64,000 bases of DNA. Source: an uncultured Chlamydiae bacterium (GTDB lineage: Bacteria > Chlamydiota > Chlamydiia > Chlamydiales > JAJFMA01). Position 1 is the first letter of the stretch. Each line of letters begins with the position of its first letter. The notes under the pieces are model-generated. The model searched no databases, was not told the DNA's origin, and saw nothing but the letters and a program-made list of their open reading frames with translations. The position numbers and the translations under genes are program-made. Shown one piece after another: positions 28,318 to 32,789 of this stretch. The stretch is taken from NCBI GenBank assembly GCA_963713615.1, contig CAVQMM010000001.1, forward strand, positions 928,001 to 992,000, read 5' to 3'.

Positions 28318-29394
28318 ATGCAACAGCGAGCCTTTAGCCTAGCAGAATTAGCCTCTGAAACGGGCAGTCAGTTGGTTGGTGATGCTAATCACCTCATCAG
28401 TGGCGCAGCGGAACTTGAGTGTGCAACTTCAATTGATGCTGCCTATGTCGCTGATAGCAGATTTATGAATGCTCTGAATGCGACGCATGCTGGAGTCGTT
28501 TTTATTACTCCGCAGCTTTCTCGTCCGGAAGGCAAAAATTATCTGTTAAGTGATGATCCGGCCTTAGCCTTTCAAAAATGGTCTAAGATTGTTGCATCCC
28601 ATAAACGTAAACCACCTGGGTTTACAGGTATTCACCCCACAGCTGTTATTCATCCCACAGCTCGGTTAGGGGCTGACGTCACTGTCGGTCCTCATACTGT
28701 CATCGAACGCGATGTAGTCATTGGCGACCGAACAATCGTGGGCCCCCTTGTCTATATCGGGCCTGAAGTTCAAGTGGGGAGCAATGGAACCATCAATTCC
28801 CACGTGGCTATCCACGATGCCTGCGAAATAGGAAACCGTGTTGTCATTTCGTCAGGTGCAGTCATCGGTAGTGTTGGCTTTGGCTTCCGCCAAACTGACA
28901 AGGGACACCACGAGCGGTATGAACACTTAGGTAACGTAGTCATCGATGATGATGTTGAAATTGGTGCTAATACCACCATTGACCGAGCAAGATTGAAGAG
29001 TACGCGCATTGGCCGCGGCTCCAAGATCGACAATCAGGTTCAGGTGGCTCACAACGTTGAGATCGGTGAAGACAATATTATCGTTGCCCAGGTTGGTATT
29101 GCTGGATCTGTCAAAACGGGCCGTTGGGTGGTCCTAGCCGGTCGAGTAGCTGTTAACGACCACGTTCATTTATGTGATAAAACGGTTATCGCAGCATGCT
29201 CAGCTGTTCTGAGGTCTATTACAACAGCAGGAACGTATATGGGCTTCCCAGCTATTCCATTGCGCCGTCATCATCGGCTGCTAATCTGTTTCCATAATTT
29301 AGATAAGATCTTCATGGATGTTCAGAAGCTCAAAAGGCACTTGCAAATTGAAGACAAAGACTCCGAGCCCACCAGAGGTGCCTTAGAACGCTGA
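28318..29394 (+). CDS. lpxD: UDP-3-O-acylglucosamine N-acyltransferase
   Basis: IHPTAVIHP hexapeptide repeats, GSVGFGF, VEIGANTTIDR, KIDNQVQVAHNV. Confidence 0.96.
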   Translation: MQQRAFSLAELASETGSQLVGDANHLISGAAELECATSIDAAYVADSRFMNALNATHAGVVFITPQLSRPEGKNYLLSDDPALAFQKWSKIVASHKRKPPGFTGIHPTAVIHPTARLGADVTVGPHTVIERDVVIGDRTIVGPLVYIGPEVQVGSNGTINSHVAIHDACEIGNRVVISSGAVIGSVGFGFRQTDKGHHERYEHLGNVVIDDDVEIGANTTIDRARLKSTRIGRGSKIDNQVQVAHNVEIGEDNIIVAQVGIAGSVKTGRWVVLAGRVAVNDHVHLCDKTVIAACSAVLRSITTAGTYMGFPAIPLRRHHRLLICFHNLDKIFMDVQKLKRHLQIEDKDSEPTRGALER

Positions 29395-29462
29395 ATGTCT
29401 CTTCAGAAGGGTCAAAGCTTCTTGCATCTTATGCGCAGCACGGCGTTGTTGAAAAATCAATT
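29350..29462. repeat. Direct repeat 1 of the lpxD/Inc-like gene convergent 3' junction
   Basis: Matches 30543-30632 and 32689-32789; the minus strand encodes QRRAAHKMQEALTLLKRHSAF*. Confidence 0.93.
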
Positions 29463-29494
29463 GGTTCAAACAGTTATTAATTATTGATAATATT

Positions 29495-29628
29495 AGTAGA
29501 AACTATAGAAAGACATCTCATTCAAAATACGATTTGAAAGTGCATCTGATTTGGGTGACAGAATATCGCTATAAGGTTACTTGTAGGTGCTGTAGCAATC
29601 TACGGACTTTAGTCCATAGTAGTTGGAT
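29495..29628 (+). pseudogene. Internally deleted IS200/IS605 tnpA remnant with end hairpin
   Basis: Translates NYRKTSHSKYDLKVHLIWVTEYRYKV (Y1 transposase N-terminus), then frameshifts and joins the hairpin ctacggact-tt-agtccatag. Confidence 0.75.
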
Positions 29629-29705
29629 TTCATTGACTTTATCTTTTATTATCGATATCTTTTAACTTATCGTATATATTACAAATTTCAAAAGGAAGAA
29701 AGAAC

Positions 29706-30446
29706 ATGAACTATCTAATTTTGGGACTTGGAACCGGCATCGGATCCTATGCCCTAGAGCGATTTGTAAATCCCGCTCAGTCCCCCAAAACAGCGGCATT
29801 GGTCTCCGTCCTCAACGCAGCTGCAGTTGTAATCATATCACCTTGGTTCCTCCCGGGGATTTCATCACCGCCGTTGGGGCCTGTCGTGCCATTAAGCGGG
29901 TCCGTTCATGCTGATATGGCCGAGGTGTGCAATTCATATTTAAATGGAAATTACGACAATGCAGGGTTCATGCCGGACGGACTGAAGTGTTGTGAAGATC
30001 GCATATGTGAGGAAGCGTTCGAGTTTTGTATGACTGGCGCAAATGCGTGTTGTGAGCTTGTGCTTCGTGGATACGAGTTGATGCCCGAGCTACCCCATAT
30101 TAGTAAATATGAGGAAATGCCCGAGGCGCTCAAGTGTTGTAAGACTGGCATAGACGCATGTTGCGACTTTGTTATCAGTGTGTCCCAGTGTTTTTTGAAT
30201 GCTCCTATAGACTCTTTCTGTTCAGCAATCCGCGCGGAGACCTGCACGCTTTCAGCTTTTACTGATTTTATTCCAGCAGGTATGGCAAATGCATGGAATG
30301 GCCTAAGCGCCTGTTTTACCGGTGGAGATCTAGATGGCTACCTTCTACATAACCGTATTTTTGAGTGTTTTTCTAGCAATCACAATATTGCAACTGGCGC
30401 GATGGACATCAAAGGGGCTCTGACATGCGTGAATGCGATAACTTAG
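29706..30446 (+). CDS. Cys-rich hypothetical membrane/secreted protein
   Basis: 246 aa; hydrophobic N-terminus; internal repeat MPxxLKCC...ACC; SD-like AAGGAAG upstream. Confidence 0.75.
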   Translation: MNYLILGLGTGIGSYALERFVNPAQSPKTAALVSVLNAAAVVIISPWFLPGISSPPLGPVVPLSGSVHADMAEVCNSYLNGNYDNAGFMPDGLKCCEDRICEEAFEFCMTGANACCELVLRGYELMPELPHISKYEEMPEALKCCKTGIDACCDFVISVSQCFLNAPIDSFCSAIRAETCTLSAFTDFIPAGMANAWNGLSACFTGGDLDGYLLHNRIFECFSSNHNIATGAMDIKGALTCVNAIT

Positions 30447-30632: not shown

Positions 30633-30849
30633 ACGCTAGGATTCCCTTGAAACTTGAGATACACATCCGAGCTTCGGGGGATTGGCACAGCCCAACGCCA
30701 TCTGAGCGTCAGGGCTCATCATCCCCCCTGTATGGTCCTTTCGGCACGATCTTTTCTTGCATTGTCGGCTCTGTGACAAAATAAATCATCGTCACGATGG
30801 CGATGCAGATAACTACATTCATAAAAGCTTGGTCACTTGAGCTTTGTAA

Positions 30850-31122
30850 TCAGGAGGAACCAGGCGGGGAATAGTCACTTCTTCTTCTGCTGGGCTCGAA
30901 GTCTTGAAAAAAAACTGCGATGGATTCGGGAAGGGCCAGTTTGTCCGCAAGGGGTAGACCCCCAAATTCCTTTTTTGCCAGGTTCAAAAGATCTTGATTG
31001 GAGGATTCTACGGCTCTTAAAAAATTTCTTATAAAAACTTTACTCTCCGGGGACATGTCCTGAGATGGCTTTAGGGTGTTCCACTGAACAAGTTTAAAAT
31101 GTTCGGAATAGGGCAGTATCAT
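30850..31122 (-). CDS. Small protein (90 aa) translationally coupled to the kinase
   Basis: ATGA start/stop overlap at 31119-31122 with SD AGGAG; MILPYSEHF... Confidence 0.6.
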   Translation of the reverse strand: MILPYSEHFKLVQWNTLKPSQDMSPESKVFIRNFLRAVESSNQDLLNLAKKEFGGLPLADKLALPESIAVFFQDFEPSRRRSDYSPPGSS

Positions 31123-32411
31123 AAAATCTCCTGCTTGATACGCAAACAAAATTGTAGCATTTCCTTTGTTACCTGACAATAAGGATTGTCTGAATCTGTT
31201 TTAAGATCTAAATCCCTGAAAATTTGAGAAGTATCGGCAACTGCGAGCTTTGTCATAGCTCGGTCATATCCCTTTCCGAAACACTCTTTTACTAACAATT
31301 CGTTCAAAAAGATTGATTCGGCATTAGCGGCTATATCCTTAGGCGTATAGCTTTTGATACTTTTTAGATAACCATCTGCCAGAATTTGAATAAATTCTTC
31401 TTTATTTTCTGCACTAGTATAATAAGAAAAAGCCTCGGCAAAAGAGGATGGGGTATTATCGGCTCTATCGGCATGAAGGACACATGGAACATCCATGGGT
31501 ATGTCATCTTCCACGTCATCTCTGTCGTTGCTGGATCCGTTGCCAAACAGGCCAAATAAAGATTGAGACTCTTCGTCAGATTCCGTGTCAAAACGTGCCA
31601 CCTTAGGTTTTAACCTAGCTGATGTTGCATTATCAATTGAATATGTTTCAACCAATTCATGTTTAGCATCTTCCGTCCATTTCAGCTTAAACATAATATT
31701 ACCATAGTTGCAAAAACTTTGAATTCGCCTTGGATTGGTCTCTTGATTCCTAAAGAATCTATCATCATTTCCTATTAATAGGTCGAAAACGGCAATTTCT
31801 CCCATATCGGCGAGTAGGTTTTTAAAGGATTCGTCTGTTAGGTTGAAAAAGGATTGCAGTTTTAGCATAGAGTTGAAATCGGCACCTTCAAAAGCAAACA
31901 TAAAGACTAATTCGCCATTATCCCCTAATTCGGATCGATGCATAGCTCTCATTAAGTCTCTACCTGTGCTACGTGCAGAGATTAATTCTGAACCAACAAA
32001 AGCTAGATCGGGAGCATTAAATTGAAATTGTTTAAATAACTCAGAGCAGTATTTTTCATTAGCTGCATTGTCTTTATTTACATATTTTAAGATAAAATTA
32101 AGACCTTTTTGAGACTCTCTATCTTCTTCGTTAGGTAGACGAGCAAATATGGGTAGGCTACTTTCAGGAATATTGTGATTTACTAAAGCCTGCCTTTGTA
32201 TTTGAGAAATATAAGTTATCCCAGTGCTACCATTTGATGATCTAACATAGTCAAATGCTTTATCCCCACCCACGAGCGAGTGATAGCTCACCCCTAATAT
32301 TTTTTTGATCGTTTCTAGATTGTCTATCGGGAATTTGTCGGCCATTTGATTTTCACCCTCATTTGGATCTTTAGCCGCTCTCGCTGGATAGGAACAATTA
32401 ACGCCTTGCAT
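31119..32411 (-). CDS. Atypical kinase, actin-fragmin kinase / PI3-4-kinase-like fold
   Basis: GSTGITY Gly-loop, FILK, E helix, FDLLIGNDDRF...NYGNIMF...SIDN; AT-rich. Confidence 0.7.
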   Translation of the reverse strand: MQGVNCSYPARAAKDPNEGENQMADKFPIDNLETIKKILGVSYHSLVGGDKAFDYVRSSNGSTGITYISQIQRQALVNHNIPESSLPIFARLPNEEDRESQKGLNFILKYVNKDNAANEKYCSELFKQFQFNAPDLAFVGSELISARSTGRDLMRAMHRSELGDNGELVFMFAFEGADFNSMLKLQSFFNLTDESFKNLLADMGEIAVFDLLIGNDDRFFRNQETNPRRIQSFCNYGNIMFKLKWTEDAKHELVETYSIDNATSARLKPKVARFDTESDEESQSLFGLFGNGSSNDRDDVEDDIPMDVPCVLHADRADNTPSSFAEAFSYYTSAENKEEFIQILADGYLKSIKSYTPKDIAANAESIFLNELLVKECFGKGYDRAMTKLAVADTSQIFRDLDLKTDSDNPYCQVTKEMLQFCLRIKQEIL

Positions 32412-32688
32412 AGCACTACCTTTTATAAAAGAGTTTAGTGATTTAAATTAACAACGTTTAGAAGAATATATGACAAAAGTGTTAATGTCAATGAAAACAT
32501 GTGCAAATAAACTTACCTTTATAATTAGTTATTTAATGCTCATGAAGGTAAGTAACCTGCGGGGCGAGCTAGACTATTCCCATAAGGACGAGGGGATTCT
32601 CAGGTATGAAATAACGGTCCGGGATGCGATGGAGGAGCATTAAGCTCGTTTCAGTGAAGCTCTACACACCTTCGCTGTTTTTGGACGG

Positions 32689-32789
32689 GAAGAGAAAGAC
32701 CTTGAGCCCACCGAGGGTGCTTTAGAACGCTGAATGTCTCTTCAGCAGGGTCAAGGCCTCTTGCATCTTGTGTGCGGCACGGCGTTGCT
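32689..32789. repeat. Direct repeat 3 (functional 3' end of the 32722-33474 gene)
   Basis: Same sequence, continuous with the intact ORF. Confidence 0.93.

Follow-up and report, generated by a model that had tools for sequence, protein, structure and literature searches.

Three copies of one gene end bracket two inserts between lpxD and a converging membrane protein gene in a chlamydial genome

A window of 64,000 nucleotides (G000:C1:928001-992000) from a 3.97-Mb chlamydial genome was analysed around lpxD and gene X, a membrane protein gene that converges on it. Coordinates are window positions unless contig C1 is given. Three copies of a direct repeat bracket two inserts between these genes, cargo A with a cysteine-rich gene and cargo B with a predicted atypical kinase gene. 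With a likelihood put a little above even, the inserts were gained by integrase-free recombination with DNA of diverged relatives, and the junction beside the orphan copies would have formed once and then been copied.

Repeat copies and the shared junction

The three copies of the direct repeat (29350-29462, 30543-30632 and 32689-32789) were located by blastn, and no fourth copy was present in the 3.97-Mb genome. The repeat spans two converging, overlapping gene ends, those of lpxD and X. The minus strand of each copy encodes QRRAAHKMQEALTLLKRHSAF*, the final 21 residues and stop of gene X. Copy 3 alone is attached to gene X (32722-33474, 250 amino acids), and copies 1 and 2 are orphan tails. 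Gene X is intact and a displaced 3' fragment lies at the far end of the array. The last 15 codons of lpxD and its stop, which the sequence-only reading that preceded this analysis had placed there, lie inside copy 1, with a 12-bp overlap with the X tail. The plus strand of copy 3 encodes a 33-bp diverged lpxD-like tail (EEKDLEPTEGALER* against EDKDSEPTRGALER*). The left ends of the repeat are unequal (10 vs 33 bp of the lpxD side) and the X-side breakpoint is identical in both orphans. The copies are 86-96% alike and form 90-bp and 74-99-bp repeats, unique in the genome, around small inserts with no mobile-element genes. The features of the region are given in Table 1.

Relative to gene X, six codons are changed in copy 1 and two in copy 2. 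All eight changes are synonymous, at six and two of 15 synonymous sites, respectively, and the codon comparison reproduced the repeats and changes described in the sequence-only reading. Copy 1 has a further difference at 29449. The probability that eight of eight changes are synonymous is 1e-5 to 1e-4 with neutral change in the orphan and 4e-4 to 3e-3 with the working copy drifting as well. Nine other orphan gene tails of the same genome, selected by hand out of candidate lists of 40, 18 and 45 rows, were used as a control. These carried 38 synonymous vs 78 non-synonymous codon changes (Fisher p=2e-4), with indels in six of the nine. Judged by these codons, copies 1 and 3 must be alleles from two diverged lineages, both working ends until recently, because six changes fall on 15 silent sites and none is non-silent. 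Copy 1 was almost surely once a working gene end.

Copy 2 matches copy 1 at four sites, then copy 3 at seven (7/7), and finally carries the copy-1 junction. A perfect 28-bp block is common to copies 1 and 2 and a 44-bp block to copies 2 and 3. On this pattern copy 2 is a recombinant of the copy-1 and copy-3 types. Both of its flanks are common to copies 1 and 2, as for a target duplication. The proposal that each copy had once been a functional end thus stands for copies 1 and 3 (six silent and no non-silent differences); for the mosaic copy 2 it is uncertain, as this copy need not have been a working end.

Both orphans end in the same junction, as had been claimed, and the genome has the motif TGAAA(A/G)ATCAATT at these two places only; a 13-of-14 match of this kind would arise by chance with a probability of about 4e-7. 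The 128 bp adjoining copy 2 correspond to the sucA start together with the bases just before it (C1:177500-177627; 73%, expect value (E) 3e-11). Among 2819 gene starts sucA was the best for this fragment, with a score of 127 against 49.5 for the next. The fragment ends at Ile-Asp-Pro-Ser codons, which are the junction bases, and the Ser codon is TCA in three same-genus relatives. Copy 1 retains only 12-14 bp of the fragment, followed by a deleted remnant of the insertion sequence family IS200. The fragment appears to derive from a diverged lineage and to have decayed later, because it carries 12 silent and nine non-silent codon changes in 33 codons and a 2-bp deletion. The shared junction is thus the end of a decayed sucA start and not element backbone. 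Its interpretation as an arm of a recombinase attachment site was not supported in the form proposed, as the 12-14 bp are sucA-derived, form no hairpin and occur nowhere else in the genome. No attC-like hairpin was found at the junctions, where folding was no better than in shuffles (z 0.2-1.1), and an integron cassette array was rejected on this ground. A genome scan with looser junction motifs gave scattered matches with no evident linked repeat.

The sucA start was matched in 204 of 400 genomes in a weak search, in which the window's own fragment scored E 0.009. Two matches were found in three genomes, the second match of G179 being spurious and that of G418 lying at a contig end. No orphan sucA start like the copy-2 fragment was confirmed in the 399 other genomes of the order by this search. 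Lineage-specific open reading frames (ORFs) that differ and are unrelated to one another occupy the slot upstream of sucA in G000, G001, G002 and G003 (L049, L050, L051 and L041). An origin of the kinase in the sucA slot of the relatives was rejected for G001 and G002, where the ORFs are unrelated to the kinase. The variable ORFs in this slot and the sucA-derived junction make cargo B look like a chromosomal block from a relative.

Table 1. Features between lpxD and gene X, in window positions
Feature	Position	Strand	Description
lpxD	28318..29394	+	Pfam LpxD and Hexapep above cut-off; translation
Copy 1	29350..29462	-	Working lpxD tail (+), 21-codon orphan X tail (-) with 6 silent changes, 12-14 bp sucA-derived junction
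IS200-family remnant	29463..29631	+	Internally deleted; tnpA 5' part 29492-29592 and right end; abuts copy-1 junction
Cargo A	29706..30446	+	246 amino acids, 17 Cys, single N-terminal hydrophobic segment
GTCCAT-type repeat remnant	30480..30513	.	Multi-copy, intergenic, native to genome; matches at >20 other places
Copy 2	30543..30632	-	Mosaic orphan tail; left 28 bp as copy 1; copy-3 type at 7/7 informative sites rightward; copy-1 junction
Decayed sucA start	30620..30746	-	35 codons and upstream bases; last bases form the shared junction
109-amino-acid open frame	30850..31179	-	Overlaps kinase end; gene status unsupported
Cargo B	31119..32411	-	430-amino-acid atypical kinase, predicted actin-fragmin-kinase-like fold, 38% guanine plus cytosine
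Copy 3	32689..32789	-	Working X tail and 33-bp orphan, diverged lpxD tail on plus strand
Gene X	32722..33474	-	250-amino-acid family-restricted membrane protein, two hydrophobic regions; orthologues 60-68% identical beside lpxD in relatives

The site in relatives and the two cargoes

An X orthologue (60-68% identity) was found in three of six same-family genomes. Gene X has hydrophobic segments at 96-117 and 174-220, and it is a putative inclusion membrane (Inc) protein, the segments being present and the localisation to that membrane putative. In G003 and G004 the converging lpxD and X are separated by 238 and 795 bp, respectively, and this spacer contains only inverted repeats, without cargo. 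Both genomes are of other species whose lpxD and X ends are not overlapping, and neither shows the exact empty allele. In G001 lpxD and X each reach the same tandem repeat at contig ends. The cassettes are an insertion in this lineage, because the lpxD-X junction of G003 and G004 is cargo-free; an insertion site with cargo-free relatives was what the sequence-only reading had anticipated. None of the relatives examined showed a second X tail and none of three had an integrase beside X. In G002 (L018:5900-7195), a genome with 94% completeness, the X paralogue is kept, a different gene occupies the expected place of X, and X itself was not found.

The lpxD-X junction accumulates repeats in every relative seen. 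Palindromic intergenic repeats of several families lie in the window at 3911-4129, 6436-6635, 16400-16627, 53334-53749, 10894-11104, 13394-14023, 44037-44830 and 33578-33958, and repeats similar to these families take up the space between lpxD and X in G001, G003 and G004. Closer relatives were sought in metagenome contigs, where an exact 24-base pattern gave no match and alignment of X confirmed none of 344 candidate stretches. In genome contigs three of 34 candidate stretches were confirmed, at 60-68% identity. A protein search with X gave seven matches, the nearest other one being 76% identical and partial.

The kinase of cargo B has 77 relatives of 350-440 amino acids, which indicates a complete gene. 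The alignment invariants K, D-x4-N-x-DR, N-x-GN and ID are catalytic-type motifs. The structure model had a predicted local distance difference test (pLDDT) score of 78, and its best solved Foldseek match was actin-fragmin kinase 1cja (E 1.3e-6, template modelling (TM) score 0.42). Cargo B is therefore predicted from the model to encode an actin-fragmin-like atypical kinase. Relatives of the kinase were present in 47 of 400 chlamydial genomes, its own included and one genome not scored. The family (L059-L088) occurs in many different gene neighbourhoods, sometimes in tandem. Neither an integrase nor the sucA of G000 was matched at any of 29 kinase-relative loci (1.5 kb each side). In G203:C32 (L079:826-924, 3100-3203) a distant kinase relative and one small ORF lie between the two copies of a 104-bp stretch that comes from close to the end of an ankyrin-like gene. 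The cargo had been described as a kinase plus a partner. The kinase is a complete gene, but the partner, the overlapping 109-amino-acid frame, is unsupported as a gene, with no Pfam match and no other tblastn match in the genome. The two as one split gene were ruled out because the kinase relatives end where the kinase ends.

The IS200-family remnant that abuts the copy-1 junction resembles C1:1042619-1043175 (91% over 102 bp and 90% over 39 bp), where an intact ORF matches Pfam Y1_Tnp (E 4e-40). This IS200-family transposase (L040:6620-7360, G000:C1:1042619-1043360) has short GACTTTAGTC-type palindromes on both sides, similar to repetitive extragenic palindromes. The Cys-rich protein of cargo A has two paralogues, both in the same genome only, at C1:2642706 and 2646585 (43% and 37%, tblastn). 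The family was found in one of 41 genomes, with no other relative and no usable Atlas match. All of the cargo is of chromosomal type, comprising a native IS200 remnant, a native repeat, a native gene family and a chlamydial kinase family.

The Cys-rich paralogue at C1:2642418 has thiD on one side and, on the other, a decayed 106-bp duplicate of the end of thiD; thiD and tag are names read from translations. The junction of the copy is a fragment of the start of the neighbouring tag, joined at A-rich microhomology. Across the locus (L039:5639-11076, G000:C1:2641638-2647075) the thiD end is duplicated, the tag start is present three times and two Cys-rich cargo A paralogues are found. It looks like a nested tandem duplication with a microhomology junction. 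Two other duplicated stretches were seen in the genome. At G000:C1:478951-489917 the end of a heptosyltransferase-like gene is duplicated over 237 bp, and the copies enclose 9.9 kb with a 3058-amino-acid ORF. At G000:C1:843641-844888 clustered short fragments match gene ends, several at C1:1474-1483 kb and others of phosphoketolase-like genes, probably a decayed operon copy.

Routes by which the inserts may have been gained

For integrase-free recombination three steps are proposed, with the donors, the order and the enzymes being conjectural. In the first, DNA of a diverged relative would have carried its own X end and a piece of its lpxD tail, along with the kinase and a sucA start in which decay had already occurred. 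Homologous recombination inside X and a non-homologous join at the sucA remnant would have brought it in. X would thus have acquired copy 3 as its end, and copy 1, the former end, would have been displaced but retained, because it was still the end of lpxD. In the second step the Cys-rich gene would have entered with a 90-bp duplication with arbitrary ends (10 bp on the lpxD side and 14 bp of the sucA junction). As such a duplication includes the sucA junction, the junction would have been copied and not made twice. In the third step conversion, or a crossover within the identical block of 24-28 bp, would have given the middle copy its copy-3-type sequence. The pattern would also fit two strains, each with a single insert, that recombined by unequal crossover. 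Traces of each of the three events are visible, and events of a similar kind are evident at the thiD site of the same genome.

The genes recA, comEC and dprA are present in the genome, and ComEC is described as serving lateral transfer in Chlamydia trachomatis (PMC6686042). F-type conjugation was rejected, as just a 36-residue TraC piece was found, under the cut-off. Contigs C2 and C3 look chromosomal.

Several points weigh against this account. Site-specific integration would account directly for the identical starting base of the two orphans in X. The two private changes of copy 2 are both silent (chance about 0.1), as expected of a former working end. The sucA piece has non-silent changes in 9 of 33 codons against none of 44 in the adjoining tails (Fisher p=2e-4), and this sharp decay boundary would mean that the tail side was renewed near the junction. 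The junctions differ at one of 12 bases, and copies 1 and 3 at 6 of 15 silent sites. Three or more events are required, and homology-facilitated illegitimate recombination is reported as rare in the experiments described in PMC5361080. No step has been observed, as the search for close strains gave none with an empty or single-insert site.

Tandem accretion of decayed integrative elements by a site-specific recombinase is a possible but doubtful origin. It would account for the identical junction base, the silent-only changes in both orphans and the sharp decay boundary. The junction divergence of 1/12 fits that between copies 2 and 3 (2/15), not that between copies 1 and 3, and an 8-bp block (GCACGGCG) is invariant beside the junction. 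Precedents are described for Dehalococcoides ssrA islands (PMC3146451), accretion of cis-mobilizable elements (CIMEs; PMC5704250) and icdC (PMC11148124). However, cargo A and cargo B have no integrase, backbone or common sequence beyond the junction, and two elements stripped of their backbone would be needed. The full copy-2 arm is sucA DNA that continues directly into the cargo, the weak search of the order confirmed no such orphan sucA start, and the copy-1 left flank on the mosaic copy 2 is left unexplained.

The window contains no recombinase or integrase, in line with the sequence-only reading. The genome holds nine tyrosine-recombinase matches, nine resolvase matches and one split serine recombinase. 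A suggested genome search for recombinases linked to the repeat and for further junctions yielded neither; the eight recombinase neighbourhoods listed and the motif scan showed no link to the repeat, and accretion would need an unseen enzyme. An integrase island lies between 52-bp direct repeats at G000:C1:2918662-2933832 and the split serine recombinase at G000:C1:3480333-3480983.

Improbable is a small integrase-less cassette system that would move single host-directed genes between species. Its attachment site would be a hybrid of a captured sucA start and the overlapping lpxD-X ends, and both converging genes would be restored at each insertion.

Duplication and insertion within the genome only, with no foreign end and with gene conversion by the working copy protecting the orphans from decay, is slightly less probable again. 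Such duplications occur elsewhere in the genome, at thiD and other places, the cargo families are native and copy 2 is close to copy 3. The six silent and no non-silent differences of copy 1 speak against it (p 0.003-0.012 under the model), as do the control orphans, which decay with twice as many non-silent changes, and the sucA piece, whose 12 silent changes in 33 codons are as from another species.

Part of the stretch was present in eight of nine read runs, one of them possibly the source sample, in contigs with a depth of 2-5. Copy 2 is bridged by one contig of run X1 (record 7), which reads 30461-30664 with no differences and reaches 82 and 32 unique letters beyond the repeat on the two sides. 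For cargo A the pieces in X1, X2, X6 and X8 match the window exactly, and so do those for cargo B in X1, X2, X5, X6 and X7. Among the pieces listed copies 1 and 3 were not bridged (at least 31 letters on both sides), and the eight runs gave no strain variants or joints of cassette excision or circles, which is uninformative at this depth. An assembly chimera of strain haplotypes is very improbable, as the contig is 3.9 Mb, copy 2 is bridged without differences and the cargo pieces agree across several runs, although no single public contig covers the whole stretch and copies 1 and 3 lack a bridge among these pieces.

Comparison with known systems and meaning

The architecture is already known and the unusual part is the sucA-derived junction. 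No published description of the site, or of the pattern in chlamydiae, was found in the literature searched, most subscription papers lying outside its coverage. The comparisons below hold for the passages of the papers cited. At rhs loci incoming DNA brings a new gene end and pushes the old ones further downstream (Jackson et al. 2009, PMC2935791), and displacement of type VI secretion system (T6SS) effector-immunity genes in Vibrio is of the same kind (Kirchberger et al. 2017, PMC5361080). As here, old ends lie between cargo and no integrase is described, and homologous or homology-facilitated illegitimate recombination is proposed there. Unlike in those systems, the replaced end encodes the same peptide, so that the new tip leaves the protein as it was and the target gene serves just as a landing pad. 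The repeat of 90-100 bp also covers two converging gene ends, and the junction is the same in both orphans.

Insertion with long target duplication (Furuta et al. 2010, PMC2853133) is similar in its small insert, unique direct repeat of more than 30 bp and lack of another mobile element, as described there, and some of its repeats overlap gene 3' ends. In contrast, the present site has no restriction-modification genes, has two tandem inserts, and has copies 86-96% alike with silent-only differences. CIME arrays (PMC5704250) and Dehalococcoides ssrA islands (PMC3146451) share tandem cargo split by copies of a target 3' end, integrase-less members and a short motif beside each displaced fragment. 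Fifteen of the ssrA islands are reported without an integration module, and a 15-bp motif lies beside the repeat (PMC3146451). These arrays include or derive from integrase-bearing members, however, whereas no such member was seen at the present site, where the motif stems from the start of a housekeeping gene. At icd/icdC around prophage e14 (PMC11148124) an imported 3' end also completes the gene and the old end is left as a fragment. The imported end differs mostly silently, by 12 nt and 2 amino acids over 165 bp (PMC11148124). Unlike the present inserts, e14 is a prophage with an integrase and a single insert.

The value of the site is as a well-resolved chlamydial case, and as a warning that a short common junction may be no attachment arm. 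Integrase-free gene gain by recombination at a gene end is a known route. The sucA remnant indicates where cargo B probably originated, and the silent-only tails point to gene ends exchanged between lineages that are distant at synonymous sites. The site would be a clean footprint of an intracellular bacterium gaining single lineage-specific genes between conserved genes and leaving those unbroken.

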